From the IMG/VR virus record IMGVR_UViG_2778261246_000002: DNA of 21,360 bases. The stretch is one strand, 5' to 3'. A model generated the notes under the pieces. It was not told the DNA's origin and searched no databases. It was given only the letters and a program-made list of their open reading frames with translations. Positions 1 to 18,281 of the stretch are shown piece after piece; position 1 is the first letter of the stretch, and every line of letters begins with the position of its first letter. A program made the translations under genes and the position numbers. Origin of the DNA: a virus (taxonomy: Duplodnaviria; Heunggongvirae; Uroviricota; Caudoviricetes).

Positions 1-157
1 AAGAACGGCATTGCATAACCTTGCAGTGGCGATCGAGCATTACAATGAAAACCATCCGCATAGTGCGTTGGGTTATCGCTCTCCGCGAGAATATCGACGT
101 CAGCGGGTAATGTTAACTTAAGATACAACCCCTGTCTGGAAATAAGGGGGCAAGAAC
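1..157 (+). mobile_element. Right end of an IS2-like (IS3-family) insertion sequence: transposase 3' end plus terminal repeat
   Basis: Transposase C-terminus ends at 121. The following ~35 nt (CTGTCTGGAAATAAGGGGGCAAGAACA, ~131-157) resemble the IS2 right terminal repeat (..GTCTGGAAATATAGGGGCAAATCCA) as I recall it. Exact terminus is approximate. Confidence 0.55.
2..121 (+). CDS. IS3-family transposase OrfB (DDE/rve integrase core), C-terminal 39 codons; 5' end lies outside the window
   Basis: Frame-2 translation ..[39 protein letters not shown], stop at 119-121. The HYNExxPHSALGY(x)SP(x)EY block is the conserved C-terminal signature of rve-domain transposases. Confidence 0.7.
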
Positions 158-448
158 ATTGTGATAATTTTATCAAGATTATGATGAATGCTGCAGTATA
201 TCTAACATGCTGCAGTTAACTCAATTTGTATTATCGCTAATATTTTTAATAACAAGGATGTTTATTGCTTTTTTATTTGAGAGTGAACGTCTAACCATTG
301 TTGTTCTTAGTTCTCATGGAGAGATTGGAGCTTAAAATACGCAATGTTTTGAAATCAGCGCAACTATATTCCGTAATTGTTCTTTGTCGTTCTTGCGTGG
401 CACGGTGATACACCTCTCATGTCGGTTGTTTTTTTGAACGCAGAAACA

Positions 449-476
449 TAAAACAAAGGCGACCGGGATGGTCGCC
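449..476 (-). terminator. Putative rho-independent terminator of the minus-strand RHH/SWIM operon
   Basis: Perfect 7-bp stem GGCGACC/GGTCGCC (458-464 / 470-476) with loop GGGAT; on the minus strand it is followed by TTTGTTTT. Lies ~70 nt downstream of the SWIM gene stop. Confidence 0.5.
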
Positions 477-544
477 AGTGGCATAACACTAAAATTGAGC
501 GTATTCAGAATACCAAGTGTCGGCTGGTGGACAATGGAATCAGT

Positions 545-901
545 TCAATATTTAGGTGGTTCAACAAGAGCGTTTATCATTGCTCTCAAATTATCGCGAA
601 CACTTATCCAAGTCTGTTCTGCTCGTTCTAACTCATTAGTGTACAGCTTTAATGTTTTATCTATGCCATATGTGGCTATTAAATTTATAGCTTCTTGTAA
701 CTTTTCGGGATTATTCCTTCTTGGGGGAGTGAATATACCGCGGATTTTTCCGGTAATTAAAGCTTTACGGTGTCTACATAGAATACCTTTACTTCCTGCT
801 GGACAATTACAAGTCATGATTAGCGAGCCAGAATCGTTTGATACAGTGACTATGTATACATCCAAACTACTGCTACTTGTTGCGAAGAATTCGTATTTCA
901 T
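545..901 (-). CDS. Small SWIM-type zinc-finger protein (118 aa), function unknown
   Basis: ATG start preceded by AAGGAG at about -8. Contains CNCPAGSKGILCRHRKAL, which fits the CxCx(n)CxH SWIM zinc-finger pattern. Lies 27 nt downstream of the RHH gene on the same strand. Confidence 0.6.
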   Translation of the reverse strand: MKYEFFATSSSSLDVYIVTVSNDSGSLIMTCNCPAGSKGILCRHRKALITGKIRGIFTPPRRNNPEKLQEAINLIATYGIDKTLKLYTNELERAEQTWISVRDNLRAMINALVEPPKY

Positions 902-928
902 GTGTTAGCTCCTTGACTTCAATTATTC

Positions 929-1123
929 TTATCCTTTTGGTTCAATACCGCGCCGTAGCAGCTCTTTGCGCCCTAACTCTTTAAGCCAGTTGGCAAGGCT
1001 TACCCCATCGTTACTGGCTTCGTTATCAAACTGCTCCTTCAATTCAGGAACTATGCGCATATGGAACGGTGGGGCCTTTCCTGTGCCTTTTTGTTTTTTA
1101 TCGCGCTTAATAACCGTTGACAT
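929..1123 (-). CDS. Arc/Mnt-family ribbon-helix-helix DNA-binding protein (64 aa), probable repressor
   Basis: PFHMRIVPELKEQFDNEASNDGVSLANWLKEL matches the Arc/Mnt beta-strand plus helix pattern (compare Mnt PHFNFRMPMEVREKLKFRAEANGRSMNSELLQIV). Its start codon abuts the palindromic operator. Confidence 0.65.
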   Translation of the reverse strand: MSTVIKRDKKQKGTGKAPPFHMRIVPELKEQFDNEASNDGVSLANWLKELGRKELLRRGIEPKG

Positions 1124-1168
1124 GTGTACACCTATAGCGTTATGTTTTTATTCGATAGGTGTACACCT
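1117..1168. promoter_or_regulatory. Divergent promoter/operator: sigma70-like rightward promoter overlapped by two palindromic operator sites
   Basis: TTGACA (1117-1122), 17-nt spacer, TTATGT (1140-1145) on the plus strand. Operator sites ATGTGTACACCT (1122-1133, one mismatch from palindrome) and AGGTGTACACCT (1157-1168, perfect 12-bp palindrome) form inverted arms 1124-1135 / 1155-1166. Confidence 0.5.
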
Positions 1169-1458
1169 TAACATGTGTGCATTTAAAAACGCAACGCCCC
1201 GCAGTGCGGGAACACATGCAGGGCGTCTAACCACCAACGATAGCAACAGTATCGAGGTAGCTATGAGAAATCATACCACACACCCGCAAGGGCGGGACTC
1301 GCACAACCTGAATAAATTCACTTGGCGCTTTATCGCCCTGAGTGCGGCTAAACCGCGCATGCTTACCATCGTGGTCACCAGCGAGCAGGAAGACCGCCAG
1401 CAATCCCCAACTGGCTGCGTGATGATATTCGCCGCCCGTATTCGTCAGGAGGTGTGCC

Positions 1459-1683
1459 ATGAATGATCTTTATTTTAAAGTGCTGACACATGCTGAAAAC
1501 GCGCTCGTTTGTGGCAAAAATATGCGAGAAATCTTATCAACCTGGCTTGATGGGACAACAAATGCGGAACACGATGAACGGGATGCTAATTTAGCTGGAG
1601 CGTTAATTACGTTACTTGATCCTGTCATCAAAGAGCTGGATGAAGCTATAAAAATACACGACCAGAGCTATACCGGAGAATAA
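1459..1683 (+). CDS. Hypothetical acidic protein (74 aa), first clearly supported gene of the rightward operon
   Basis: AGGAGG 8 nt upstream of the ATG; 3 nt from the next ORF. No family recognised. Confidence 0.55.
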   Translation: MNDLYFKVLTHAENALVCGKNMREILSTWLDGTTNAEHDERDANLAGALITLLDPVIKELDEAIKIHDQSYTGE

Positions 1684-1686
1684 AAA

Positions 1687-1974
1687 ATGAAAAATAAATT
1701 TTCTGGCTTTATTGCCAGCGGTCAAACTCATTCAAAAATCAGCCTTGGGGATATTTTCAAAGACAGCTATGGCTATCGGGTAAAGATTATTTCGGTTGAT
1801 GATCGTCGTGTCTCTTATTTGCGTGATGGTTATGATTTTGAATGTGTTATGCCGCGTCAGCAGTTCGAAAGAGATTTCATTCTGGTAAAAAATTGCAAGA
1901 CAGATAATCAGAGGCGTGCCGCAGGCTATATCCGTAAAATTCGGGCAATGTTAGTTGCCGGAGGTAACAAATGA
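1687..1974 (+). CDS. Hypothetical protein (95 aa)
   Basis: GGAGA 7 nt upstream of the ATG; stop overlaps the primase start (ATGA). No family recognised. Confidence 0.55.
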   Translation: MKNKFSGFIASGQTHSKISLGDIFKDSYGYRVKIISVDDRRVSYLRDGYDFECVMPRQQFERDFILVKNCKTDNQRRAAGYIRKIRAMLVAGGNK

Positions 1975-3791
1975 AACGTGCTCCGAACTTAAAATACCAA
2001 CCGCGCGACAAAATGACGGAAGTCATCATTTTTGCTGGCAGTGATGCCTGGAGCCATGCAAAAGAATGGAATGAATGGGCAGGTAAGCATATTGCAGCAG
2101 ATGATACACCACCAGTCATTCTGGGTACGGAACAACTGGAAAACCTGGATGATATGCAAATTATCGATGAAGGCCGTCATTATGTGCGTGTTTATCGTGC
2201 CGGAAAGATTGCAGAGAAAAGTCTGACGAAGGTTGCGACATTACTTGCTATTGCAGGCGTAAAGGAAGCACGTTGTTACCGTAGCTTTGTTGATCGAGAG
2301 CCTGAAGACTGGACTCCGCGCCTTGTCGGCCTAAAAGCTGAAGCGGAGCATGGGGAAAGTCTGGTGATTGAACTGCCAGTGAAGAAGGCAGAGCGCAAAA
2401 ATGACGAGCGTGCTTCATCTTTGGCGTTGAATCAGATGGGGGCCAGCCAGCGCGGTGAAGTTCTCCTTGCACATTACGGCGGCGAACTGGCAATCAATGC
2501 CGACTCTGACACCGTTCATCATTACAACGGCGTTGTATGGGAGCCGGTTCAGGATAAAGAGTTACAGCGTGCTATGGCGCAGATTTTCATTGATGCGGAG
2601 ATCAGCTATTCGCAGAACGCTATTAAATCGGCGGTAGATACCATGAAGTTAAGTTTGCCTGTAATGGGGAATACAGCCCGTAACCTGATTGGATTCAGTA
2701 ACGGGGTATTTGATACCAGAACTGGTAATTTTCGGGAGCATAACAAAAACGACTGGTTGTTAATTGCCAGTGAATTACCTTTCAGCCCACCAGCAGAGGG
2801 GGAAACGCTGGCAACACATGCGCCGAATTTCTGGAAGTGGTTGCGCCGTTCGGTGGCTGAGAATGACCGCAAGGCAGATCGCGTACTGGCGGCATTATTC
2901 ATGGTGCTGGCGAACCGGTACGACTGGCAGTTATTCATTGAGGTAACAGGGCCGGGGGGAAGTGGTAAAAGTGTGATGGCGGAGATTTGCACCATGCTGG
3001 CGGGTAAGGCTAATACAGTATCAGCAAGCATGAAGGCGCTGGAAGATGCAAGGGAACGTGCGTTAGTGGTTGGCTTTTCGCTGATTATCATGCCGGATAT
3101 GACCCGCTACGCTGGTGATGGGGCAGGGATTAAGGCCATTACAGGCGGTGACAAGGTGGCAATTGACCCGAAACACAAAGCCCCCTATTCAACGCGTATT
3201 CCGGCAGTAGTGCTGGCGGTTAACAATAACGCCATGTCATTCAGTGACCGCAGCGGGGGGATCTCACGTCGTCGGGTGATATTCAATTTTTCGGAAGTTG
3301 TACCGGAGAACGAACGCGATTCGATGCTGGCGGAAAAAATAGAAGGTGAGCTGGCGGTAGTGATTCGCCATCTGCTTACACGGTTTGCTGATCAGGACGA
3401 AGCCAGACGCCTGTTATATGAGCAGCAGAAATCTGAAGAAGCACTGGCGATAAAGCGAGAGGGGGATTCGCTGGTGGACTTCTGCGGCTATCTCATGGCA
3501 TCGGTAATGTGTGATGGCCTGTTAGTGGGTAATGCTGAAATTGTGCCATTCAGCCCACGCAGGTATCTCTATCATGCCTATCTGGCTTATATGAGGGCAC
3601 ATGGGTTTGGTAAACCTGTAACACTGACGCGCTTCGGTAAAGATATGCCGGGGGCAATGGCGGAATATGGCAGGGAGTATATGAAACGGAAAACGAAGCA
3701 CGGTTTGCGTTCAAACGTGACACTGACGGAGGAATCAGAAGACTGGATGCCATCATGTGTATCGGTCACTAATGACGATAGCAAAAATTAA
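1971..3791 (+). CDS. P4-family phage/plasmid primase-helicase (alpha-like replication protein, 606 aa)
   Basis: GGAGG RBS and ATGA coupling to the upstream ORF. Walker A motif TGPGGSGKS in a D5/P4-alpha-like NTPase region. A long C-terminal region is followed directly by P4-type TGTTCACC iterons. Confidence 0.8.
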   Translation: MKRAPNLKYQPRDKMTEVIIFAGSDAWSHAKEWNEWAGKHIAADDTPPVILGTEQLENLDDMQIIDEGRHYVRVYRAGKIAEKSLTKVATLLAIAGVKEARCYRSFVDREPEDWTPRLVGLKAEAEHGESLVIELPVKKAERKNDERASSLALNQMGASQRGEVLLAHYGGELAINADSDTVHHYNGVVWEPVQDKELQRAMAQIFIDAEISYSQNAIKSAVDTMKLSLPVMGNTARNLIGFSNGVFDTRTGNFREHNKNDWLLIASELPFSPPAEGETLATHAPNFWKWLRRSVAENDRKADRVLAALFMVLANRYDWQLFIEVTGPGGSGKSVMAEICTMLAGKANTVSASMKALEDARERALVVGFSLIIMPDMTRYAGDGAGIKAITGGDKVAIDPKHKAPYSTRIPAVVLAVNNNAMSFSDRSGGISRRRVIFNFSEVVPENERDSMLAEKIEGELAVVIRHLLTRFADQDEARRLLYEQQKSEEALAIKREGDSLVDFCGYLMASVMCDGLLVGNAEIVPFSPRRYLYHAYLAYMRAHGFGKPVTLTRFGKDMPGAMAEYGREYMKRKTKHGLRSNVTLTEESEDWMPSCVSVTNDDSKN

Positions 3792-3804
3792 ACTTATGGA
3801 ATAA

Positions 3805-4027
3805 CTGTTCACCACTGTTCACCCTGTCATAAATATCTTTTATATCAGTATATTATAGGGTGAACAGTTATTTATGAACTGTTCACCAAACTATTCACTG
3901 TTCACCTTTTTGATTGTTTATTGAGCTTCAAGGGTGAACAGTGGTGAACAGTTGGTGAATAGTTTTTGTGAAACTGTTCACCCATTAACATTATGAATTA
4001 AAAGAGAAAATATCAAAAGGTGAACAG
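3805..4027. repeat. Iteron cluster, probable satellite origin of replication (P4 ori-type TGTTCACC repeats)
   Basis: At least 9 copies of CTGTTCACC / GGTGAACAG in both orientations (3805-3813, 3815-3823, 3859-3867, 3879-3887, 3898-3906, 3933-3941, 3943-3951, 3974-3982, 4019-4027), plus degenerate copies, in AT-rich non-coding DNA just after the primase gene. Confidence 0.8.
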
Positions 4028-4078
4028 GTGAAGGGTTAAAACGCAAAAATTTTAATTTACTGCTGTGAGATAAAGCCT

Positions 4079-4324
4079 ATGACAGCGAAGCACACAAAAA
4101 AATCACAATCGCACGCCCTTGATTTGACGGAACACTGGTTAAGGGTGTCGATAAAAATCATCGACCGCAACGCCGGGGAAGGATACGCGAAAGCACATCC
4201 CGAACTGATTAGCGCATTCATGACAACGGCGGCTGCAAACTTTGCCACTCTGACCGAACGGGAGATTGCTGAAGCGGAGGAAGTGACAACAATCAATATT
4301 AAGTCCGGAGAGCAGGCAGCATGA
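4079..4324 (+). CDS. Hypothetical protein (81 aa), translationally coupled to ssb
   Basis: Stop overlaps the ssb start (ATGA at 4321-4324). Weak RBS, no family recognised. Confidence 0.4.
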   Translation: MTAKHTKKSQSHALDLTEHWLRVSIKIIDRNAGEGYAKAHPELISAFMTTAAANFATLTEREIAEAEEVTTINIKSGEQAA

Positions 4325-4770
4325 CGGCGCAAATATCAGTTTACGGGCGGTTGGTGGACGACCCGCAGACAAAACAGACCAGCAAGGGCACCCCCATGAC
4401 GCTGGCGCGTATGGCGGTATCACTGCCCTGCAGTCAGTCGGATGACGGTCAGGCGACGATGTGGTTATCTGTCCTGGCGTTTGGCAGACAAGCCGACGCG
4501 CTGGCAAAGCATCACAAAGGCGAACTCCTGAGCGTGGCGGGTAATATGCAGGTGAGCCAGTGGACTGGACAGAACGGTGAAACGCGGCAGGGCTGGCAGG
4601 TTATCGCAGACAGCGTAATCAGTGCGCGAACGGTGCGACCGGGCGGCAAAAAAGGTCAACAGGGTCAGGCTACTGACGCACTGAACAGAGCAAAACAACA
4701 GGCAGATCAGCAAGGAAGCCATCCACCAGTGGGAGATAATGAACAATGGGGAGATGATATTCCGTTTTAA
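4321..4770 (+). CDS. ssb: Single-stranded DNA-binding protein (149 aa)
   Basis: OB-fold SSB-like N-terminus (MTAQISVYGRLVDDPQ..), Gly/Gln-rich linker and the SSB acidic tail ending DDIPF. Confidence 0.85.
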   Translation: MTAQISVYGRLVDDPQTKQTSKGTPMTLARMAVSLPCSQSDDGQATMWLSVLAFGRQADALAKHHKGELLSVAGNMQVSQWTGQNGETRQGWQVIADSVISARTVRPGGKKGQQGQATDALNRAKQQADQQGSHPPVGDNEQWGDDIPF

Positions 4771-4787
4771 ATATTGCCAATAAAAAA

Positions 4788-4813
4788 GGCCGGAAAAAAA
4801 TAAATTTTCCGGC
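4788..4813. terminator. Hairpin between ssb and the capsid-like gene, possible terminator or module boundary
   Basis: GCCGGAAAA / TTTTCCGGC 9-bp stem with a 7-nt loop. No U-tract on the plus side; TTTTTTATT follows it on the minus strand. Confidence 0.3.
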
Positions 4814-4987
4814 ATGCTACATAAATCCCGACCAAAGGGAGTGAAGATATTAACACTAATTATCCGCGCTGAAGTTGTTATCCCAAAACTTTATACAACA
4901 TTGCACTCGGTTGCATGTATTCGCATGACAAATATCGGTGATAGCATATATCCACAATTATTTTTAATGAATGCAAAGAGGATGCGT

Positions 4988-6028
4988 ATGGTTGATTTAT
5001 ATTCGCCTACCCAGCTTGTACAGGTGGTTAATGCTGTAGATGTACAAAAACAACTAAATGCGTTGTTTACCAGTTTGTTTTTTACTCGCTCGGTAATGTT
5101 TGAATCGCGCGATATTATTCTTGATACAATCGACGATCCAAATATCCCAATTGCAGCGTTTTGTTCTCCTATGGTGGGTAGTAAAGTTTCACGTGACGAA
5201 GGGTACGAATCAAAAACAATTCGTCCAGGCTATATGAAGCCGAAAAGCAGCATTGATCCAAATAAGTTAGCTGTGCGCCCTGCTGGTGTATCACCTGAGC
5301 AATACAATGCTTTTGGAGCGCGTAATATTAAAGTTAAACAGGCGATTGTAAATCAGGCTAAAGCTATTCGTGCACGTATTGAATGGCTTGCCGTTCAGGC
5401 AATCACAACGGGGAAAAATATCATTGAGGGCGATGGTATTGAACGTTATGAGCTGGACTGGAATATTAAACCACAAAATATCATCACTCAGTCTGGCGGT
5501 GCTGAGTGGTCAGGTAAGGATAAAGAAACTTTTGATCCAAATGATGATATTGAGAGCTACGCAGAATTTAGTGAGGGCGTCACTAATATCATCATTATGG
5601 GCGGTAATGTATGGAAGAAATACCGTTCATTCAGAGCGATAAAAGAGGCTCTGGATACCCGTCGTGGTTCTAATTCCGAACTGGAAACGGCTCTTAAAGA
5701 CCTTGGTGATTCGGTGAGTTTTAAAGGGTATATGGGCGATGTTGCGATTGTTGTATACAGCGGGCGTTATACCGACGAGGACGGAACTGAAAAACATTTC
5801 CTTGATCCTGATTTGATGGTGCTTGGCAATACGGCTCTTCAGGGGATTGTCGCCTATGGCGGTATTCAGGATCCGGAGCTAATCCGAATGGGGCTGACTA
5901 AAGCCGAACTTGCACCGAAAAACTATATTGTGCCTGGTGATCCGGCTATTGAATATGTGCAGACACATTCAGCACCACAGCCAATACCGGCCCGCATCAA
6001 TCGTTTTGTTACCGTTCGCATTGGCTAA
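4988..6028 (+). CDS. Diverged lambda-gpE-like major capsid protein (HK97-fold MCP paralog, ~346 aa)
   Basis: Aligns along its length with lambda E (roughly 45-50% identity by eye), including an identical LDTRRGSNSELETA block and ITQSGGxEWSxxDKxTxDPxDDIE. I place the start at ATG 4988 (AAGAGGA RBS 5 nt upstream) rather than the ORF-track start at 4814, because MVDLYSPTQL aligns with the lambda E N-terminus. Confidence 0.8.
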   Translation: MVDLYSPTQLVQVVNAVDVQKQLNALFTSLFFTRSVMFESRDIILDTIDDPNIPIAAFCSPMVGSKVSRDEGYESKTIRPGYMKPKSSIDPNKLAVRPAGVSPEQYNAFGARNIKVKQAIVNQAKAIRARIEWLAVQAITTGKNIIEGDGIERYELDWNIKPQNIITQSGGAEWSGKDKETFDPNDDIESYAEFSEGVTNIIIMGGNVWKKYRSFRAIKEALDTRRGSNSELETALKDLGDSVSFKGYMGDVAIVVYSGRYTDEDGTEKHFLDPDLMVLGNTALQGIVAYGGIQDPELIRMGLTKAELAPKNYIVPGDPAIEYVQTHSAPQPIPARINRFVTVRIG

Positions 6029-6037
6029 GGGGGAGCA

Positions 6038-6379
6038 ATGGCTACTCATTACACTGAACTCATGGCTGGCACTGAAGCACTGGTGACTACGCTGGGGATA
6101 TTTTCAGCTAATAAAGGGGTAATTCCTGCATTTACGCCACTGATGCAGGAAGATGCAACAGGTGCACTGGTGGTATGGGATGGTTCGAGCGTAGGTAAAG
6201 CGGTTTATGTTTCCGCTGTACAAATCGACACCGCGAAAAAAACACAGGCTCAGGTCTATAAGACAGGTGTCTTAAATGTTGATGCTCTGAACTGGCCTGA
6301 GTCTGTAAAAGAACTGTCAGTAAAGATTGCAGCGTTTGTTGGCTCAGGTATTTCTGTTCAGCCGCTGGCTCGTGTGTAA
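6038..6379 (+). CDS. Lambda-gpD-like head decoration protein (113 aa)
   Basis: PAFTPLMQEDATGALVVWDGSSVGKAV..AAFVGSGISVQ aligns with lambda gpD [46 protein letters not shown] RBS; starts 10 nt after the capsid-like gene. Confidence 0.75.
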   Translation: MATHYTELMAGTEALVTTLGIFSANKGVIPAFTPLMQEDATGALVVWDGSSVGKAVYVSAVQIDTAKKTQAQVYKTGVLNVDALNWPESVKELSVKIAAFVGSGISVQPLARV

Positions 6380-6390
6380 AGGGGGATACA

Positions 6391-6774
6391 ATGCAGAATG
6401 ATTACAATGACCTTAAGCCAATTGCCGAAATGATGTACCCGAATCCAGCTGTAGAGGAATTAAAAGCTATCGCTGACAAAATGTGTTTAAGCGAGCGCCT
6501 TGTTGATATGAATCAGGTGATGGAAATTACAACCCTGAGTCGGCGTACACTGCTAAACCTTGAGGCTAGTGGAGAGTTCCCGGAGCGTGTGCAGGTTACG
6601 GAAGGGCGTAAGGCCTGGTATTTAAGTGAAGTGATCGACTGGATAAATAATATTCCTCGCGCTTCTGAATATTGCCGCGTACCTGTCCCAAAAAAGCCAG
6701 ATGCGGCGCTATGCCTCAAGATTGAGCGTGTACGCCGCAATGCACGGGATGGTCGCTATAAGCTGATTGGTTGA
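6391..6774 (+). CDS. AlpA/MerR-like winged-HTH DNA-binding protein (127 aa)
   Basis: MNQVMEITTLSRRTLLNLEASGEFPERVQVTEGRKAWYLSEVIDWIN fits the AlpA/excisionase wHTH pattern, a fold also used by Nu1-type small terminases. Same [8 protein letters not shown]-type RBS as the D-like gene. Ends 20-25 nt before the cos-like segment. Confidence 0.55.
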   Translation: MQNDYNDLKPIAEMMYPNPAVEELKAIADKMCLSERLVDMNQVMEITTLSRRTLLNLEASGEFPERVQVTEGRKAWYLSEVIDWINNIPRASEYCRVPVPKKPDAALCLKIERVRRNARDGRYKLIG

Positions 6775-6794
6775 TGAAATTAGGGCCCGCTCTG

Positions 6795-7019
6795 GCTGGC
6801 GGGTCCTTTCCGGCGATCTGACAGGCTACGGGGCGTCAGGCGCGCAGTTTTTCTCTATTTATGGAAATTTTCCGGTTTAAGGCATTTCCGTTCTTCTTCG
6901 CCGTAACTTTATGTTTTTATTTAAAATACCCCCTGAAAAGAAAGGAAATGACAGGCGCTGAAAACGGGCATTTTGGCCTCTGTCGTTTCCTTTCTCTGTT
7001 TTTGTCCGTGGAATGAACA
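6795..7019 (+). promoter_or_regulatory. Lambda-type cos site (cosQ - cosN - cosB with R3/R2/R1 elements)
   Basis: 6799-6830 matches the lambda right end (GCGGGTCCTTTCCGGCGATCTGACAGGCTACG vs ACGGGTCCTTTCCGGTGATCCGACAGGTTACG). 6831 onward matches the lambda left end through the Nu1 start. The 12-mer at the cosN position is GGGCGTCAGGCG versus lambda GGGCGGCGACCT. R-like elements: CATTTCCGTTCTTC (~6883), inverted AAAGAAAGGAAATGACAGG (~6938), CTGTCGTTTCCTTTCTCTG (~6975). Confidence 0.7.
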
Positions 7020-7214
7020 ATGGAAGTCAACAAAGATCAGCTGGCTGACATTTTGGGCAAGAGTTGTGCAATACTTTTGTCAGACGTAAATATTTTTGAG
7101 GAACATTATTATATTTATGTAATTAGAGATATGTTTGATAGGACTAGAAATAAAGCAGACGCCTTAGTTATGTCAATTGCTGAAATAATAAAGGAAAATA
7201 GCAATGATAAATAG
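7020..7214 (+). pseudogene. Truncated Nu1-type small terminase gene: first ~13 codons fused to unrelated AT-rich sequence
   Basis: MEVNKDQLADILG matches the lambda Nu1 N-terminus MEVNKKQLADIFG. Similarity to lambda ends near 7062, after which the ORF runs through AT-rich DNA to a stop at 7212-7214. Confidence 0.6.
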
Positions 7215-7243
7215 AAAAAAGCGGTCACGCGACCGCTTTTATT
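7215..7243. terminator. Bidirectional rho-independent terminator between converging genes
   Basis: AAAAAA-GCGGTC-acgc-GACCGC-TTTTATT: perfect 6-bp GC stem flanked by an A-tract and a T-tract. Sits between the plus-strand fusion ORF and the minus-strand HEPN gene. Confidence 0.7.
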
Positions 7244-7278
7244 ATTTGCAAGTTATTTTTTTGGCTGGAGATAAACTA

Positions 7279-7827
7279 TTACTGTTCACCAATTTGCTCT
7301 CTAAACTGTGTACTGAACGTATCTAGTTGAGAGACAAATGAATGTGCATTTAAAAATTTATTATAAATCTCTTCAGCTGTGCTTTCTAATACAAAAGTAG
7401 CATAATTATTATGTGCTAATTTATTTCTTAGCTCTCCGATTTCCATAAAATCAGAGATAGACTTGGTCAACTCTGTGCTTGATTTTACCTTCTCAATCAT
7501 AAACTCTTTAAATTTTGGGCCAAAAAAGGAAAAAAACTGGTTTGCATTCCTTTTTTTCCAATCAAAGAGTGTATGATACTGCCTGGTTAGGGCCTTATTA
7601 TCGATAAAATCGTGCGTAAGATTACATTGGCTTGGGTTAAGCATACAATGTATCTTAGTTACAACTAAAGTTTCAAAATAGCTAGCACATGCTAATAGCA
7701 TTACTTTTGAAAATTGTGATTTGTAATCATTAGCAAAACTAATCTCATTATGAGTTAGAAGAAAATCATAATAACACTTATAGTTATTAAACATACTTTC
7801 AATAGAAGTATATCCCATATCCTCCAT
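7279..7827 (-). CDS. HEPN-motif protein (predicted RNase effector, ~182 aa)
   Basis: ELRNKLAHNNY carries an R-x4-H motif as in HEPN domains. I prefer ATG at 7827 (MEDMGY.., GGAGG ~12 nt upstream, 4 nt after the DUF262 stop) over the ORF-track GTG at 7860. AT-rich codon usage. Confidence 0.6.
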   Translation of the reverse strand: MEDMGYTSIESMFNNYKCYYDFLLTHNEISFANDYKSQFSKVMLLACASYFETLVVTKIHCMLNPSQCNLTHDFIDNKALTRQYHTLFDWKKRNANQFFSFFGPKFKEFMIEKVKSSTELTKSISDFMEIGELRNKLAHNNYATFVLESTAEEIYNKFLNAHSFVSQLDTFSTQFREQIGEQ

Positions 7828-7831
7828 TATT

Positions 7832-8995
7832 TTACATTCCCTCCAAAATTGTTCTTGCACGTTCTAGACGTCCAATTACATGCTCTCTTCTTGTTGTTTT
7901 ATCAGTACTAAATGTCAGAAATTCAGGATCATTTTTAAGCTTATCGATGTAATTCACCGTCACTTGTCTTATTTTTAGATCTTTATCTTTAAATGAGTCA
8001 TAAGTTGCAGCATAAAAAATTGACTCAAATAAAGTTATACTCATACGATTCCCACCAGTTCTGAAATTGATTTCATCAATTCCATCAACACTATCCATAA
8101 ATTCATTCCATATATTACTAAATAAAGTTATGTCTTTAGTGTCGTAGTTTTTTGCATAATTTGAGAAATTGTTCAAAAAACCGCTAACTGAGCTTTTGTA
8201 TTGAGATGTAAAAAGGGACATAGCAAATGTGCGCAATATCGCTTCAATATCACTCAATCGCATGTCAACAACATTTTTTGAAAGAATTTTTCTCCATGTC
8301 TTGTTTTCATTCAATGAAACAAGATTTGAAAGAAAGTCTGAGTGATATAAACTCATACGAATTTCTTGAGGAGAAAGGTTCATTCCCCCACTATTTAGGC
8401 GGTTAAATATTTCAAACATTGCACCATCTTCCGAATCTTGTGCAACCGGTTTGATTACCATATTTCGTATGGTTGCCAGATTTAAAGTGGTTTGAAATTC
8501 GTTTAATGTTTCATAGTTTTTCCCATTAAACTTGTTTTTTTGGGTGTCTGATAGACCATCAAGTTTTAGGTTGAACTTTGTGAAGTATTCATCATTGTGA
8601 AGAATGTTTTCTGGAATGTTTCCATTATCTTCAAAGATTTTTCTCAGTTCAGAACGTTTCTCTTTTCTAGGGAATACACCATTTACAAAGTAATAAAGGG
8701 TCATTAATCTCTGCTGACCATCTATCACTAAAAATTCATTTTTATCTTGTTCATATAAAAATATTTGAGGTATAGGAAGGCCTATTAAAAGAGATTCAAT
8801 GAGTTTTGATGCTCGTTTGATATCCCAAACATAATGCCTTTGAAAGTTAGGGATTTTAAAAACTTTTGATTTAATAAAACTTATAATTGTGATTATATTA
8901 AAATCATTGGGCGTAGTAGTAAGTTGAAACTCATCAATTGGATAGGATTCTGGCTCATCCTCGTATTGCTTTTCTTCATAATCTTCTGGTTGCAT
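7832..8995 (-). CDS. DUF262 (ParB/GmrS-like) domain protein (~387 aa)
   Basis: Hallmark motifs FQRHYVW and VIDGQQRLMTL, plus the downstream FEIFNRLNSGGMNLSPQEI element. No His-Me/DUF1524 nuclease motif seen in the C-terminal half. I prefer ATG at 8995 (AAGGA 7 nt upstream) over GTG at 9043. Confidence 0.8.
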   Translation of the reverse strand: MQPEDYEEKQYEDEPESYPIDEFQLTTTPNDFNIITIISFIKSKVFKIPNFQRHYVWDIKRASKLIESLLIGLPIPQIFLYEQDKNEFLVIDGQQRLMTLYYFVNGVFPRKEKRSELRKIFEDNGNIPENILHNDEYFTKFNLKLDGLSDTQKNKFNGKNYETLNEFQTTLNLATIRNMVIKPVAQDSEDGAMFEIFNRLNSGGMNLSPQEIRMSLYHSDFLSNLVSLNENKTWRKILSKNVVDMRLSDIEAILRTFAMSLFTSQYKSSVSGFLNNFSNYAKNYDTKDITLFSNIWNEFMDSVDGIDEINFRTGGNRMSITLFESIFYAATYDSFKDKDLKIRQVTVNYIDKLKNDPEFLTFSTDKTTRREHVIGRLERARTILEGM

Positions 8996-9089
8996 CGTGT
9001 CATCCTTTTTCTTCGTGAATATGGTTTTTAGACAAGTCCTCACTACACATATCTGTATTGCAGAAAGTATTGCAGTGATAGGAGTTGCG

Positions 9090-9125
9090 TAGATATATAA
9101 ACCACAAAGCTAAGTGAAATCAAAT
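9090..9125 (-). promoter_or_regulatory. Putative sigma70 promoter for the DUF262-HEPN operon
   Basis: On the minus strand TTGATT (plus-strand 9118-9123), 17 nt, TTATAT (9095-9100). Two direct repeats GTATTGCAG (9055-9063, 9067-9075) lie between it and the start codon. Confidence 0.35.
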
Positions 9126-9151
9126 AGTTCTTTCGGGATTGACTCATGTAG

Positions 9152-9940
9152 CCGAAGCATGAGGTGAATCCGCAGATGACCCTGCGTCGCCTGCCGGATG
9201 AAGATCCGCAGAATCTGGCGGACCCGGCTTACCGCCGCCGTCGCATCATCATGCAGAACATGCGAGACGAAGAGCTGGCCATTGCTCAGGTCGAAGAGAT
9301 GCAGGCAGTTTCTGCTGTGCTTAAGGGCAAATACACCATGACCGGTGAAGCCTTCGATCCGGTTGAGGTGGATATGGGCCGCAGTGCGGCGAACAACATC
9401 ACGCAGTCCGGTGGTACGGAGTGGAGCAAGCGTGACAAGTCCACGTATGACCCGACCGACGATATCGAAGCCTATGCGCTGAACGCCAGCGGAGTGGTGA
9501 ATATCATCGTGTTTGATCCGAAAGGCTGGGCGCTGTTCCGTTCCTTCAAAGCCGTCAAGGAGAAGCTGGATACCCGTCGCGGCTCTAATTCCGAGCTGGA
9601 GACAGCGGTAAAAGACCTGGGCGAAGCGGTGTCCTATAAGGGAATGTATGGCGATACGGCGATCGTCGTGTATTCCGGACAGTACGTAGAAAACGACGTC
9701 AAAAAGAACTTCCTGCCGGACAACACGATGGTGCTGGGGAACACTCAGGCACGCGGTCTGCGCACCTATGGCTGCATTCAGGATGCGGACGCACAGCGCG
9801 AAGGTATTAACGCCTCTGCCCGCTACCCGAAAAACTGGGTGACCACCGGCGATCCGGCGCGTGAGTTCACCATGATTCAGTCAGCACCGCTGATGCTGCT
9901 GGCTGACCCTGATGCGTTCGTGTCCGTACAACTGGCGTAA
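9152..9940 (+). pseudogene. E: Lambda major capsid protein E, 3' fragment (codons ~80-341), lacking start and N-terminus
   Basis: In-frame translation from 9152 gives PKHEVNPQMTLRRLPDEDPQNLADPAYRRRRIIMQNMRDEEL..SAPLMLLADPDAFVSVQLA, matching lambda gpE from residue ~80. An in-frame TAG sits at 9149-9151 and upstream DNA is unrelated AT-rich sequence. Confidence 0.85.
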
Positions 9941-9981
9941 TCATGGCCCTTCGGGGCCATTTTCTCTCTGTGGAGGAGTCC

Positions 9982-10377
9982 ATGACGAAAGATGAACTGA
10001 TTGCCCGTCTTCAGGTGCTGGGTGAGCAACTGAACCGTGATGTCAGCCTGATGGGGACGAAAGAAGAACTGGTGCTCCGTGTGGCAGAGCTGGAAGAGGA
10101 GCTTGATGACACGGATGACGCTGCCGGTCAGGACACATCTGTCAGCCCGGAAAATGCGCTGACCGGACATGAAAATGAGGTTGTATCAGCGCAGCCGGAT
10201 ACCGTGACTGATACGGCTGATCTGGTCACGGTTGTGGCACTGGTGACGCTGCATACTGATGCACTTCACGCCACGCGGGATGAGGCTGTGGCATTTGTGC
10301 TGCCGGGAACGGCGTTCCGTGTCTCTGCCGGTGTGTCAGCTGAAATGACAGAGCGCGGCCTGGCCAGAATGCAATAA
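9982..10377 (+). CDS. FI: Lambda gpFI-like DNA-packaging/head-completion protein
   Basis: MTKDELIARLQVLGEQLNRDVSL..MTERGLARMQ matches lambda FI; GAGGAG RBS. Chosen over the upstream ORF-track start at 9943. Confidence 0.85.
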   Translation: MTKDELIARLQVLGEQLNRDVSLMGTKEELVLRVAELEEELDDTDDAAGQDTSVSPENALTGHENEVVSAQPDTVTDTADLVTVVALVTLHTDALHATRDEAVAFVLPGTAFRVSAGVSAEMTERGLARMQ

Positions 10378-10388
10378 CGGGAGGCGCT

Positions 10389-10742
10389 GTGGCTGATTTC
10401 GATAACCTGTTCGATGCTGCCATTGCCCGCGCCGATGAAACGATACGCGGGTACATGGGAACGTCAGCCACCATGACATCCGGTGAGCAGTCCGGTGCTG
10501 TGATACGTGGTGTTTTTGATGACCCTGAAAATATCAGCTATGCCGGACAGGGCGTGCGCGTTGAAGGCTCCAGCCCGTCCCTGTTTGTCCGGACTGATGA
10601 TGTGCGGCAGCTGCGGCGCGGCGACACGCTGACCATCGGTGAGGAAAACTTCTGGATAGACCGGATTTCGCCGGATGATGGCGGAAGCTGTCATCTCTGG
10701 CTTGGGCGGGGCGTACCGCCTGCCGTTAACCGTCGCCGCTGA
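10389..10742 (+). CDS. FII: Lambda gpFII-like head-tail joining protein
   Basis: MADFDNLFDAAIARADETIRGYMG..HLWLGRGVPPAVNRRR matches lambda FII; GTG start. Confidence 0.85.
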   Translation: MADFDNLFDAAIARADETIRGYMGTSATMTSGEQSGAVIRGVFDDPENISYAGQGVRVEGSSPSLFVRTDDVRQLRRGDTLTIGEENFWIDRISPDDGGSCHLWLGRGVPPAVNRRR

Positions 10743-10753
10743 AAGGGGGATGT

Positions 10754-11332
10754 ATGGCCATAAAAGGTCTTGAGCAGGCCGTTGAAAACCTCAGCCGTAT
10801 CAGCAGAACGGCGGTGCCCGGTGCCGCCGCAATGGCCATTAACCGCGTTGCTTCATCCGCGATATCGCAGTCGGCGTCACAGGTTGCCCGTGAGACAAAG
10901 GTACGCCGGAAACTGGTAAAGGAAAGGGCCAGGCTGAAAAGGGCCACGGTCAAAAATCCGCAGGCCAGAATCAAAGTTAACCGGGGGGATTTGCCCGTAA
11001 TAAAGCTGGGTAACGCGCGGATTGTCCTGTCCCGACGCAGGCGTCGTAAAAAGGGGCAGCGTTCAGTCCTGAAAGGTGGCGGCAGCGTGCTTGTGGTGGG
11101 AAACCGTCGTATTCCCGGCGCGTTTATTCAGCAACTGAAAAATGGCCGGTGGCATGTCATGCAGCGTGTGGCCGGGAAAAACCGTTACCCCATTGATGTG
11201 GTGAAAATCCCGATGGCGGTGCCGCTGACCACGGCGTTTAAACAAAATATTGAGCGGATACGGCGTGAACGTCTTCCGAAAGAGCTGGGCTATGCGCTGC
11301 AGCATCAACTGAGGATGGTAATAAAGCGATGA
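10754..11332 (+). CDS. Z: Lambda gpZ-like tail completion protein
   Basis: 192-aa product matching lambda Z; same length and position as in lambda. Confidence 0.9.
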   Translation: MAIKGLEQAVENLSRISRTAVPGAAAMAINRVASSAISQSASQVARETKVRRKLVKERARLKRATVKNPQARIKVNRGDLPVIKLGNARIVLSRRRRRKKGQRSVLKGGGSVLVVGNRRIPGAFIQQLKNGRWHVMQRVAGKNRYPIDVVKIPMAVPLTTAFKQNIERIRRERLPKELGYALQHQLRMVIKR

Positions 11333-11724
11333 AACATACTGAACTCCGTGCAGCCGTACTGGATGCACTGGAGAAGCATGACACCGGGGCGACGTTTTTT
11401 GATGGTCGCCCCGCTGTTTTTGATGAGGCGGATTTTCCGGCAGTTGCCGTTTATCTCACCGGCGCTGAATACACGGGCGAAGAGCTGGACAGCGATACCT
11501 GGCAGGCGGAGCTGCATATCGAAGTTTTCCTGCCTGCTCAGGTGCCGGATTCAGAGCTGGATGCGTGGATGGAGTCCCGGATTTATCCGGTGATGAGCGA
11601 TATCCCGGCACTGTCAGATTTGATCACCAGTATGGTGGCCAGCGGCTATGACTACCGGCGCGACGATGATGCGGGCCTGTGGAGTTCAGCCGATCTGACT
11701 TATGTCATTACCTATGAAATGTGA
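11329..11724 (+). CDS. U: Lambda gpU-like tail terminator protein
   Basis: 131-aa product matching lambda U; ATGA overlap with Z. Confidence 0.9.
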
Positions 11725-11731
11725 GGACGCT

Positions 11732-12472
11732 ATGCCTGTACCAAATCCTACAATGCCGGTGAAAGGTGCCGGGACCACCCTGTGGGTTTATAAGGGGAGC
11801 GGTGACCCTTATGCGAATCCGCTTTCAGACGTTGACTGGTCGCGTCTGGCAAAAGTTAAAGACCTGACGCCCGGCGAACTGACCGCTGAGTCCTATGACG
11901 ACAGCTATCTCGATGATGAAGATGCAGACTGGACTGCGACCGGGCAGGGGCAGAAATCCGCCGGAGATACCAGCTTCACGCTGGCGTGGATGCCCGGAGA
12001 GCAGGGGCAGCAGGCGCTGCTGGCGTGGTTTAATGAAGGTGATACCCGTGCCTATAAAATCCGCTTCCCGAACGGCACGGTCGATGTGTTCCGTGGCTGG
12101 GTCAGCAGTATCGGTAAAGCGGTGACGGCGAAGGAAGTGATCACCCGCACGGTGAAAGTCACCAACGTGGGACGTCCGTCAATGGCAGAAGATCGCAGCA
12201 CGGTAACAGCGGCAACCGGCATGACCGTGACGCCTGCCAGCACTTCGGTGGTGAAAGGGCAGAGCACCACGCTGACCGTGGCATTCCAGCCGGAAGGCGC
12301 AACCGACAAGAGCTTCCGTGCGGTGTCTGCGGATAAAACAAAAGCCACCGTGTCGGTCAGTGGTATGACCATCACCGTGAAAGGTGTTGCTGCAGGCAAG
12401 GTCAACATTCCGGTCGTATCTGGTAATGGTGAGTTTGCTGCGGTTGCAGAAATCAACGTCACCGCCAGTTAA
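11732..12472 (+). CDS. V: Lambda gpV-like major tail tube protein
   Basis: [33 protein letters not shown].. matches the lambda V N-terminus; GAGGA RBS. The ORF-track start at 11702 overlaps U and is less likely. Confidence 0.9.
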
Positions 12473-12487
12473 TCCGGAGAGTCAGCG

Positions 12488-12910
12488 ATGTTCCTGAAAA
12501 CCGAATCATTTGAACATAACGGTGTGACCGTCACGCTTTCTGAACTGTCAGCCCTGCAGCGTATTGAGCATCTCGACCTGATGAAACGGCAGGCAGAACA
12601 GGCGGAGTCAGACAGCAACCGGAAGTTTACTGTGGAAGACGCCATCAGAACCGGCGCGTTTCTGGTGGCGATGTCCCTGTGGCATAACCATCCGAAGAAG
12701 ACAAAGCTGCCTTCCATGAATGAAGCCGTTAAACAGATTGAGCAGGAAGTGCTTACCACCTGGCCCACAGAGGCAATTTCTCATGCTGAAAACGTGGTGT
12801 ACCGGCTGTCCGGTATGTATGAGTTTGTGGTGAATGATGCTCCTGAACAGGCAGAGGACGCCGGGTCTGCAGAGCCTGTTTCTGCGGGAAAGTGTTCGAC
12901 GGTGAGCTGA
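12488..12910 (+). CDS. G: Lambda gpG-like tail assembly chaperone
   Basis: 140-aa product MFLKTESFEHNGVTVTLSELSALQRIEHL.. matching lambda G. Confidence 0.9.
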   Translation: MFLKTESFEHNGVTVTLSELSALQRIEHLDLMKRQAEQAESDSNRKFTVEDAIRTGAFLVAMSLWHNHPKKTKLPSMNEAVKQIEQEVLTTWPTEAISHAENVVYRLSGMYEFVVNDAPEQAEDAGSAEPVSAGKCSTVS

Positions 12911-13326
12911 GTTTTGCCCTGAAACTGGCGCGTGAGATGGGGCGACCCGACTGGCGCGCCATGCTTGCCGGGATGTCATCCACGGAGTATGCCGACTGGC
13001 ACCGCTTTTACAGTACCCATTATTTTCATGATGTTCTGCTGGATATGCACTTTTCCGGGCTGACGTACACCGTGCTCAGCCTGTTTTTCAGCGATCCGGA
13101 GATGCATCCGCTGGATTTCAGTCTGCTGAACCGGCGCGAGGCTGACGAAGAGCCTGAAGATGATGTGCTGATGCAGAAAGCGGCAGGGCTTGCCGGAGGC
13201 GTTCGTTTTGGCCCGGACGGGAATGAAGTTATCCCCGCTTCCCCGGATGTGGCGGACATGACGGAGGATGACGTAATGCTGATGACAGTATCAGAAGGGA
13301 TCGCAGGAGGAGTCCGGTATGGCTGA
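12488..13326 (+). CDS. T: gpG-T tail assembly fusion protein made by programmed -1 ribosomal frameshift (G frame 12488-12892, T frame to 13326)
   Basis: Slippery heptamer GGGAAAG at 12886-12892, as in lambda G/T. The -1 frame ORF 12892-13326 encodes a T-like sequence with no independent strong start. Confidence 0.75.
12886..12892 (+). promoter_or_regulatory. Programmed -1 frameshift slippery site (G GGA AAG)
   Basis: Heptamer GGGAAAG near the 3' end of G, at the junction with the overlapping T frame. Confidence 0.7.
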
Positions 13327-16904: not shown

Positions 16905-16909
16905 ATCCC

Positions 16910-18222: not shown

Positions 18223-18236
18223 TGAAAAACGTTTAT

Positions 18237-18260: not shown

Positions 18261-18281
18261 GTCGTTTATGGAGCGTGAGGA

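Follow-up and report, generated by a model that had tools for sequence, protein, structure and literature searches.

The window analysed in this study, the whole stretch of 21,360 nucleotides, carries a capsid gene (E′) and a decoration gene (D′) in a phage satellite that splits gene E of its helper prophage. The features are given below with coordinates and strand.

1687–1974, plus strand: DUF4222 gene, the start of the satellite replication zone (Pfam PF13973, E = 3.4e-22)
1971–3791, plus strand: PICI pri-rep, primase-helicase (Pfam D5_N 1.4e-13, DUF5906 1.3e-10, Pox_D5 2.9e-12)
3803–4037, directly 3′ of pri-rep: replication origin with about 11 iterons, GGTGAACAGT / ACTGTTCACC, in both orientations (repeat search)
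4321–4770, plus strand: satellite ssb (Pfam SSB, E = 2.6e-16)
4988–6028, plus strand: E′, satellite-lineage major capsid protein of the lambda E family, HK97 fold, 346 aa (PF03864, E = 1.4e-41)
6038–6379, plus strand: D′, satellite-lineage head decoration protein of the lambda gpD / phage 21 SHP family, 113 aa (HDPD, PF02924, E = 4.4e-15)
6391–6774, plus strand: second AlpA-family helix-turn-helix gene, tight behind D′ (PF05930, E = 7.6e-09)
6800–7057, plus strand: packaging-module remnant, a helper-type cos region with about 13 initial codons of a Nu1-like terS
7020–7214, plus strand: truncated Nu1-like ORF, which begins MEVNKDQLADILG and runs on into cargo DNA
7279–9043, minus strand: low-GC defence cargo, a DUF262/GmrSD_N gene (7832–9043) and a HEPN gene (7279–7860)
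9150–9159, plus strand: attR core AGCCGAAGCA, where the satellite ends on the right (alignment of attL from NRG857c, attR from the window and an intact E gene)
9150–9940, plus strand: 3′ part of the helper prophage E gene from about codon 80, split by the satellite (tblastn match to intact helper E at 9152–9937)
9943–18222, plus strand: helper genes FI, FII, Z, U, V, G, T, H, M, L, K and I (Pfam and the annotation of the NRG857c locus)

E′ matched the Phage_cap_E profile with 143.1 bits (cut-off 22.9), and residues 12–343 covered profile positions 4–327 of 329. A Shine-Dalgarno motif, AAGAGGA, lies 5 nt before the ATG, and the RefSeq start is identical. A 404-codon ORF from 4814 was considered as the start of E′ and was rejected for 4988 on the ribosome-binding site and the RefSeq annotation. 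D′ matched PF02924 with 56.3 bits (cut-off 29.1) and starts 9 nt past the E′ stop, with its own ribosome-binding site, GGGGGAG. The initial annotation had placed a full-length gpE-like gene and a gpD-like gene after ssb, and its coordinates and gene calls held on both the Pfam matches and the ribosome-binding sites.

The AF2 model of E′ (pLDDT 81.2, pTM 0.82) matched PDB 3BQW, the crystal structure of c1499 from the island EcCICFT073, with a TM score of 0.96 at 1.6 Å, and lambda gpE (7SJ5) with a TM score of 0.92. E′ was colinear end to end with both lambda gpE and 3BQW with small indels only, and 65 columns were invariant in both lineages. D′ aligned with the solved chain of SHP (PDB 1TD0) at 6.2e-16 and with those of lambda gpD (1C5E, 7VII) at 1e-11, which bears out the kinship with gpE and gpD proposed earlier. 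E′ was 47% identical (113/239 residues) to the lambda-type E fragment at 9164–9940, so that two distinct E homologues are present in the window. Some strongly conserved segments are peculiar to the E′ lineage and unlike phage E, for example AIxARxEWLAVxAITTGKNIIEG and GDPAIEYVQTHSAPQPVP.

It is nearly certain that the satellite is a Gram-negative PICI and that E′ and D′ are its late-zone capsid and decoration genes. In the window, pri-rep (RefSeq product name 'DNA primase family protein') is followed by an iteron-type origin, whose position fits that described for Gram-negative PICIs (PMC6092414). The DUF4222 gene occupies the same position in sister PICIs. The left end of the satellite, with int and the first AlpA-family regulator, lies outside the window and was judged from the copy in Escherichia coli NRG857c (locus L001). 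There, int (L001 16938–18173) and a helix-turn-helix gene (18175–18402) stand at the head of the element in one gene direction with pri, ssb, E′ and D′, the arrangement expected of a Gram-negative PICI, which has int and an AlpA-family regulator at its left end. The distance from attL to attR in L001 is about 11 kb, within the 10–20 kb of PICIs, and no lysis or tail genes were found among the annotated genes of the L001 satellite. The satellite setting proposed earlier was confirmed, with primase, origin and ssb upstream; the backbone is of PICI type (int-AlpA ... pri-ori ... late zone) and not P4-like. In a scan of positions 1–9300 for P4-type immunity RNAs, no Rfam family, C4/isrK included, reached its gathering score.

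The element is near-identical to Eco567.11capE, which lies in prophage 50icd of NRG857c and founded the class of helper-embedded PICIs (Tommasini, Mageeney & Williams 2023, PMC10111431). The NRG857c copy was 100% identical to the window over 4800–6800 and 99.6% over 1309–9200. Both have the same E:Phage_cap_E:80 site, att core and DUF262/HEPN cargo; they differ in the first ~1.3 kb of the window, a dynamic 'Bro' zone, so the window derives from a strain other than NRG857c. In NRG857c the order is int ... pri ... ssb, E′, D′, AlpA, cargo, and the split E gene flanks the element, with 246 nt of its 5′ part on one side and 789 nt of its 3′ part on the other, which places it at the E:Phage_cap_E:80 site. 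Immediately upstream of the satellite int come the helper's Nu1, terminase, W, portal, S49 protease and D genes and the 246-nt 5′ part of E. The earlier statement that no terminase, portal or protease gene is nearby was true inside the satellite only, where 6800–7057 holds the cos remnant and first Nu1 codons. The NRG857c copy, from which the integrase outside the window was judged, is the founding member of the 11capE integrase clade; E-embedded relatives in Cedecea and Kosakonia have integrases 83–89% identical to it.

At the right end, helper E resumes at window position 9150 and is followed by FI to J. The att core is common to both junctions, with the shared form A(A/G)CC(C/G)AAGCA, and matches the 10-bp block of identity that has been described for 11capE (PMC10111431). 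The fragment 3 kb downstream of the pair had been recognised correctly as a lambda-type E from which E′ is clearly diverged; what had been missed is that it is the helper prophage's own E, split at about codon 80, on the attR side. RefSeq labels it 'major capsid protein, missing N-terminus'. The downstream helper genes (9943–18222) matched the Pfam families Packaging_FI, Phage_attach, Minor_tail_Z, Phage_tail_U, Phage_TTP_12, TMP_2, Prok-JAB/NLPC_P60 and Lambda_tail_I. J comes next after 18222 and extends past the window end. A 625-codon minus-strand ORF at 18882–20759 had no Pfam match and occupies the position of J, which follows I in NRG857c; it was taken as a shadow ORF.

For 11capE, excision after replication of the composite was reported and no virions were detected; Tommasini et al. 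likewise detected no plaque-forming units in induced NRG857c cultures (PMC10111431). In the text of that paper no role is assigned to the capsid gene, and a text search turned up no mention of the decoration gene. Neither the gene pair nor the element is new, EcCICFT073 c1499/c1500 having been published in 2018 and 11capE in 2023. The window re-finds a published element and adds no new kind of system; its additions are modest, namely the satellite-only lineage, the co-divergence of E′ and D′, and the decay of cos and terS in the window copy.

This decay lies between the AlpA-family gene, which is kept behind D′ in 8 of 13 related elements, and the cargo. Positions 6800–7057 were 90.7% identical to the helper cos/nohD start (L001 10354–10611). 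A search of the satellite for exact or near-exact lambda cosN failed, with no site at two or fewer mismatches outside the primase gene; alignment then revealed a degenerate cosN at 6831–6842, which reads GGGCGTCAGGCG instead of GGGCGGCGACCT, with 5/12 bases changed. The N-terminus of the ORF at 7020–7214 matched helper Nu1 (MEVNKKQLADIFG), the remainder was unrelated, and the Pfam search of this ORF gave no match. Because cosN is mutated and the Nu1-like terS truncated, the window copy may lack autonomous packaging altogether. Helper-type cos, with or without Rpp/TerS, is present in sister elements, and its failure concerns the present function of the window copy, not its ancestry. The cargo next to it (7279–9043) has a GC content of 0.32 and matched GmrSD_N (1.9e-35) and HEPN_RiboL-PSP (1.9e-13) in Pfam, and NsnA (9.1e-60), PD-T4-2_A (1.1e-38) and PD-T4-2_B (2e-4) in PADLOC. 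The same slot holds different genes in other genomes.

Judged by sequence comparison, E′ and D′ form a satellite-only lineage that spans at least nine enterobacterial genera, always as E′ then D′, and is found in no sequenced phage. No relative above 60% identity was present in 50,697 phage records, and 13/13 relatives examined lay in satellite backbones; the pair was not seen within an ordinary head module. The E-then-D pair for which a search of satellites had been proposed occurs in PICI backbones, including EcCICFT073. A recent capture from a known phage was rejected, the best of 437 phage matches being only 42% identical. Of 5,426 complete E. coli genomes, about 366 (about 7%) carried an intact pair; it was likewise intact in Salmonella, Serratia, Edwardsiella, Lelliottia, Kluyvera, Superficieibacter, Cedecea and Kosakonia. 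A scan of genome contigs, limited by its pattern step, returned 4 loci and was used for breadth, not as a census. The order E then D on one strand, as first described, was the same in 13/13 relatives, with D′ 10–21 nt behind E′. In some relatives (L009, L012) an S49 protease/scaffold gene follows directly after D′. Circular permutation of a captured C-D-E block was rejected as the origin of the reversed order; the protease-bearing relatives read E′-D′-C′, which is a mirror image with no rotation.

In the unsaturated comparisons, dN/dS was 0.06–0.085 for E′ and 0.08–0.12 for D′, and both genes are under strong purifying selection. Synonymous sites were saturated between genera, which indicates that the lineage is old, and it is still full-length. 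The divergences of E′ and D′ correlated with each other (r = 0.92, n = 12), whereas those of E′ did not track the primase (r = 0.10, n = 7). E′, D′ and the second AlpA-family gene move together among PICI backbones that are otherwise unrelated. The window and L003, for example, were 99% identical in E′, 43% in the primases and 54% in the integrases. The idea that E′ tracks the E allele of its own helper was set aside; the differences of 2–3 percentage points in three pairs were too weak.

Another close system is EcCICFT073, in which c1499/c1500 have the position and order of E′/D′, after pri/ori and before the cos/Rpp module (PMC6092414). Its two proteins share the families and the satellite-specific lineage of E′ and D′; E′ was 55% identical to c1499 and D′ 54% to c1500. 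Unlike the window copy, EcCICFT073 is chromosomal, apart from its helper, and retains two exact cosN sites and RppA. Deletion of c1499 or c1500 altered neither lambda interference nor island transfer by the resident helper (Fillol-Salom et al. 2018, PMC6092414). Lambda gpE/gpD and phage 21 SHP share folds and lengths with E′/D′ at identities of 38–46% (E) and 31–44% (D), but they are a separate lineage; E′/D′ have the E-then-D order and no adjacent portal, and the protease occurs in some relatives only. A capsid gene is reported as the commonest late gene of Gram-negative PICIs, present in 21/29 reference islands (PMC10111431).

The cf-PICI EcCIEDL933 (Alqurainy et al., bioRxiv 2022.09.08.507074) likewise has a PICI backbone with its own capsid protein. 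The cf-PICIs make small capsids and have the full complement of head and packaging genes (portal, protease, connectors, HNH, TerS, TerL), whereas the window element has E′, D′ and a broken terS only; no portal, protease, head-tail connector or intact terminase gene was found between attL and attR. As regards the direction of evolution, some relatives add the protease/scaffold gene, and cf-PICIs carry a whole head module. P4 Psu and Sid are comparable in that a satellite encodes them and they work from the exterior of a hijacked capsid, and the P4 primase-helicase is also D5-like. However, they have no homology to D′, which matched HDPD only, and the window backbone is of PICI type. SaPIbov5 Ccm is, like E′, a satellite homologue of the helper major capsid protein. 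Ccm is not known to have a decoration partner.

Of the three roles that the initial annotation had suggested, a satellite capsid that assembles with helper portal and scaffold was favoured. The reading preferred here, with a rough probability of 45–50%, is that DNA-filled shells are made wholly or partly of E′ and D′ on the helper portal, scaffold and terminase, redundantly with helper E and D. E′ would be an HK97-fold shell protein able to assemble, and D′ the trimeric cement protein that belongs with it. Both would be expressed in the helper late phase, either from transcription that the satellite controls through AlpA or because helper late transcription reads through into the embedded satellite. 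E′, pure or mixed with helper gpE, would form T=7-size shells on the helper portal, scaffold/protease and terminase; DNA packaging would expand these shells, and D′ would then stabilise them. The satellite would thereby gain a capsid supply independent of helper E and D. For E-embedded copies, helper E could not be expressed before satellite excision, and E′ would bridge the gap. Helper E and D could do the same job, which would make the pair dispensable in the laboratory.

The binding of a D′ trimer to an expanded lattice is suggested by its co-divergence with E′. The only known activity of lambda gpD is binding the expanded gpE lattice. Since a diverged D′ is retained under selection, and gpD is known only to bind such a lattice, an expanded E′-containing lattice probably forms. 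The c1499/c1500 deletions were without effect (PMC6092414), so a structural role would have to be redundant or conditional. Compensation for an interrupted helper E was rejected as a general purpose because the pair also occurs in PICIs that do not interrupt E, at chromosomal sites (fis, cspD-clpS, phoQ-side) and in portal-embedded PICIs with intact helper E.

Capsid-size or shape redirection would require E′ to join or replace helper gpE, so that the shells are small, with room for the ~11-kb island but not for the helper genome. There are precedents in Ccm, a capsid-protein homologue that redirects size, and in PmCI172, which forms small heads and carries a capsid homologue (PMC6092414, PMC6893505); the conserved segments in which the E′ lineage differs from phage E would also fit. 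However, compared with gpE, E′ lacks additional domains and large indels. In EcCICFT073 lysates with lambda as helper, all packaged DNA was phage-sized, a result from a 55%-identical allele and a non-native helper (PMC6092414); it is compatible with a T=7 E′ shell. The c1499 deletion gave no relief of interference (PMC6092414). Size redirection is therefore considered unlikely. Ccm also interferes with its helper, whereas the EcCICFT073 pair neither redirected size nor interfered with lambda. Interference or superinfection exclusion, in which E′ and/or D′ poison helper capsid assembly as dominant-negative subunits, is highly improbable. A 42–47% identical subunit could in principle enter helper capsomers, and PICIs generally interfere with their helpers (PMC6092414). 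But neither deletion restored lambda plaquing (PMC6092414), and when the genes after ori were over-expressed from pBAD, c1503 (RppA) was the only one to inhibit lambda (PMC6739421). A poison needs no co-diverging decoration partner, and purifying selection along the whole length, with dN/dS below 0.1, better fits a structural protein. For both of these roles, suggested in the initial annotation, the negative evidence comes from the EcCICFT073 pair, a 55%-identical allele tested with few helpers.

It is also rather unlikely, if less so than size redirection, that the pair has no part in building particles and serves as a decoy or trigger for capsid-sensing host or rival systems, as recombination homology with helper late genes, or as a hitch-hiker with the AlpA/cos module. 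The sole genetic tests, those on EcCICFT073, gave no phenotype (PMC6092414), the block of E′, D′ and the AlpA-family gene swaps between PICI backbones, as between the window and L003, and cycles of late-gene capture and loss have been proposed (Tommasini et al., PMC10111431). Against this, the lineage is old, and both genes are full-length with low dN/dS. Recombination homology would not conserve protein sequence, and nucleotide identity to helper E is too low, the best stretch being 134 nt at 76.6%. For a decoy or trigger, the PADLOC models gave no match for E′ or D′.

Under the preferred reading, a satellite-encoded shell on helper parts, PICIs with E′/D′ might tentatively be regarded as a 'semi-capsid-forming' class between classical PICIs and cf-PICIs, although this is doubtful. 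Such islands would supply their own shell and cement on helper portal, scaffold and terminase. In E-embedded members, the first late shells would be satellite-encoded, helper E being split until excision, and the mirrored E′-D′-(C′) order beside cos would reflect a conserved design for expression and would not have arisen by chance at capture. If E′ and D′ truly form the shells of transducing particles, helper dependence would vary by degrees (tails only, tails plus portal, and so on), and the helper-embedded configuration would be a timed swap of capsid genes. The pair is carried by about 7% of complete E. coli genomes, and the only genetic tests of it gave no phenotype.

Two adjacent plus-strand genes, E' and D', follow the replication module of a satellite, a phage-inducible chromosomal island (PICI), and are listed with the other features of the window below.

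545–901, minus strand: SWIM zinc-finger ORF
929–1123, minus strand: small ORF with a sub-threshold HicB match
Upstream of E': DUF4222 gene (profile match)
Upstream of E': primase gene, D5_N/DUF5906/Pox_D5 (profile match)
3803–4037, both orientations: about 11 copies of a 10-nt iteron, GGTGAACAGT / ACTGTTCACC, directly 3' of the primase gene
Upstream of E', after the iterons: small ORF and ssb
4988–6028, plus strand: E', 346 residues, Pfam Phage_cap_E over the whole length (E = 1.4e-41)
6038–6379, plus strand: D', 113 residues, Pfam HDPD, lambda head decoration (E = 4.4e-15)
6391–6774, downstream of D': AlpA-family gene
6800–7057: helper-type cos region plus ~13 initial Nu1 codons, 90.7% identical to the helper sequence
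7020–7214: Nu1-like ORF beginning MEVNKDQLADILG, interrupted at ~7057 and continuing into the DUF262/HEPN cargo
7279–9043, minus strand: low-GC DUF262 and HEPN pair
Downstream of the cargo: 3' piece of a lambda-type E gene, 258 codons, 47% identical to E'
After the E piece: FI, FII, Z, U, V, G, T, H, M, L, K, I and the start of J

The gene identity of E' and D' is settled, and the full-length gpE-like gene and the gpD-like gene recognized by the initial annotation were confirmed by the profile matches. The start of E' was placed at 4988 because an AAGAGGA ribosome-binding site precedes it and RefSeq starts the identical gene at the same position; a longer ORF from 4814 was unneeded. E', D' and the next gene are separated by 9–11 nt, each with its own Shine-Dalgarno sequence. 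The iteron array at 3803–4037 is predicted to be the replication origin expected of a PICI. The interval separating ssb from E' contains a perfect 9-bp hairpin (GCCGGAAAA / TTTTCCGGC) at 4789–4813. Its T-run is confined to the minus strand, so that it looks like an opposite-strand terminator, although a minus-strand gene is absent nearby. A 625-codon minus-strand ORF without a Pfam match (18882–20759) occupies the expected place of helper J and was taken to be a shadow ORF; J was not among the listed ORFs because it runs past the window end.

Complete E. coli genomes were searched for the element. The NRG857c locus was 100% identical to the window over 4800–6800 and 99.6% identical over 1309–9200. 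The left ~1.3 kb (1–1308) was unlike NRG857c, which fits the variable 'Bro' zone known from such islands. The NRG857c satellite has the order int, HTH, ..., Icd-like, DUF4222, primase, ssb, E', D', AlpA-like, cargo. It is flanked by 246-nt 5' and 789-nt 3' fragments of the prophage major capsid gene. Helper Nu1, terminase, W, portal, S49 protease and D immediately precede this locus, and FI to J come after it. Alignment of attL, attR and the intact E gene placed the crossover core A(A/G)CC(C/G)AAGCA at 9150–9159. The second E homologue of the window is therefore no satellite-borne paralogue but the right-hand half of the helper's own gene, which the satellite split. The satellite context proposed initially is right; the two E homologues are indeed distinct, but the embedding of the satellite in the helper gene had been missed. 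Exactly this element was published as Eco567.11capE, which resides in NRG857c prophage 50icd and is the founding member of the helper-embedded PICIs (HE-PICIs); 201 further islands occupied the same site and 290 were inserted at late-gene sites elsewhere; upon induction the composite excises and replicates, and then the satellite excises (Tommasini, Mageeney and Williams, NAR Genom Bioinform 2023, PMC10111431). In that study, 21 of 29 reference Gram-negative PICIs had a capsid gene.

This element (2023) and the E'/D'-type gene pair (2018) were thus already known. One comparative addition of the present analysis is that E' and D' appear to form a lineage confined to satellites. No E' relative above 60% identity was found among 50,697 phage records, in which the best match was lambda E (42%). 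Full-length E' homologues in the databases fell into two groups, one of at least 50% identity (343–355 aa) and one of at most ~44% (ordinary lambda-type E). Satellite E' proteins were 52–99% identical among themselves and 38–46% identical to helper E; the corresponding values for D' were 43–98% and 31–44%. Thirteen distinct elements were examined, from Escherichia, Salmonella, Serratia, Edwardsiella, Lelliottia, Kluyvera, Superficieibacter, Cedecea, Kosakonia and one metagenome assembly. All examined copies of the pair lay in satellites, so the occurrence of these genes in an ordinary complete head module, which would have refuted the initial reading, was not found in the 13 elements or the 50,697 records. 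D' followed E' by 10–21 nt in 13/13 elements, and helper head modules had D then E in 4/4 loci, which bore out the reversed order noted earlier. E' followed the PICI replication module wherever upstream DNA was present and a marker matched. Three of the elements interrupted E and two the portal gene; others occupied chromosomal sites, among them fis/dusB and cspD-clpS.

The identities of E' and D' to the window copies were correlated (r = 0.92, 12 elements), and those of E' and primase were not (r = 0.10, n = 7). E' and D' of the window were 99% and 98% identical to those of the portal-embedded STEC367 island (L003), whereas the primases were only 43% and the integrases only 54% identical. The E'-D'-AlpA block (4988–6774; L003 14188–15974) was 95–99% identical between the E-embedded and portal-embedded islands. 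The near-identity of the block on differing backbones indicates that E'-D'(-AlpA) is exchanged between PICIs as a module by recombination. In two relatives at the fis/dusB site, the Lelliottia/metagenome pair, an S49 protease/scaffold gene lies directly 3' of D' (L009 11409–12752; L012 10418–11659). Their E'-D'-C' order is the same-strand mirror of lambda C-D-E, which a simple circular permutation of a captured block does not account for.

With unsaturated synonymous sites only, dN/dS was 0.060–0.085 for E' and 0.079–0.118 for D', indicating that both are under strong purifying selection. The alignment of E' with gpE was colinear and held 65 invariant columns; its only insertions, one of 4 residues and one of 1 residue, lay close to the N-terminus. 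The AF2 model of E' (pLDDT 81.2, pTM 0.82) superposed on crystal structure 3BQW (TM 0.96, 1.6 Å) and lambda gpE (TM 0.92). D' aligned with phage 21 SHP (6.2e-16) and lambda gpD (1e-11). The segment 5623–5756 of E' (residues ~212–256; …DTRRGSNSELETALKDLG…VAIVVYSG) had 76–78% DNA identity to the lambda-type E genes that hundreds of E. coli genomes carry, and was far nearer to helper E than is the same part of c1499, the capsid gene of the model PICI EcCICFT073. It could be an old gene-conversion patch from a helper, or it could be under strong constraint.

The pair had been reported earlier as c1499 (capsid) and c1500 (head decoration) in EcCICFT073 (Fillol-Salom et al. 2018, PMC6092414). In CFT073 these genes have the same order and position as E' and D', with 55% and 54% identity, and c1499 is the protein of 3BQW, the best PDB match to E' (E = 2.6e-121). 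With lambda as helper, the packaged EcCICFT073 DNA was entirely phage-sized (PMC6092414). Redirection of capsid size by E', one of the initial proposals, is accordingly quite improbable, as judged for that allele and those helpers. Lambda plaquing was not recovered when c1499 or c1500 was deleted, and island transfer was unaltered (3.8e3 and 8.7e3 transductants/ml; parent 8e3) (PMC6092414). When post-ori genes were expressed singly from pBAD18, only c1503 (RppA) inhibited lambda (PMC6739421). These results, again for that allele and those helpers, speak against poisoning of helper assembly, and the dominant-negative or exclusion role suggested initially is very improbable. De Sousa et al. postulated that such genes modify or stabilise hijacked capsids, and our literature search found no later paper giving the pair a function.

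At roughly even odds, E' functions as a shell protein for which D' is the matching cement. Both would be produced in the late phase of the helper; E' shells of lambda size would assemble on the helper portal, scaffold/protease and terminase, and D' would cement them. In E-embedded islands, helper E would be silent until the satellite excises, and E' would be on hand from the start. In lambda, the sole known activity of a gpD-family protein is binding the lattice exposed when the gpE shell expands during DNA packaging. The retention of a diverged D' under purifying selection, co-diverging with E' throughout the existence of the lineage, therefore implies the natural formation of expanded shells that contain E'; this argument is indirect and the strongest one available. 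The shell and cement reading fits the phage-sized DNA of EcCICFT073, the absent knock-out phenotype (since helper E and D would be redundant), the relatives adding a protease/scaffold gene, the existence of capsid-forming PICIs with a complete head module, and the published excision order in E-embedded islands. A non-structural role or hitch-hiking of these two conserved genes is unlikely. Compensation for a broken helper E was ruled out as a general purpose because most E'-bearing islands leave E uninterrupted. Overall, the initial observation was confirmed and its interpretation partly supported.

The cos copy of the window retains the cosQ-like and cosB sides. In the alignment, its 12-nt cosN at 6831–6842 is GGGCGTCAGGCG, not GGGCGGCGACCT, with 5/12 bases altered. 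The cosN and Nu1 changes were identical in NRG857c, and the altered version was present in about 26–34 complete E. coli genomes. Sister islands had an exact cosN directly 3' of the AlpA-like gene, then an intact Nu1-like/Rpp gene. The altered cosN and truncated Nu1-like ORF suggested that the 11capE lineage may have lost autonomous packaging. This would fit the report that plaque-forming units were not detected in induced NRG857c cultures (PMC10111431). The loss, if real, would be recent, because E' and D' show no decay in the window (99% and 98% identity to their counterparts in a sister island whose cos is intact).

The minus-strand cargo at 7279–9043 had a GC content of 0.32 and encoded DUF262/GmrSD_N and HEPN proteins, matched by PADLOC to NsnA (9e-60) and PD-T4-2 A/B. 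In other genomes the same slot held DUF2971 and terS, a restriction endonuclease or a TIR protein. The differing cargo indicates that the slot between the late zone and attR is a defence-gene hotspot.
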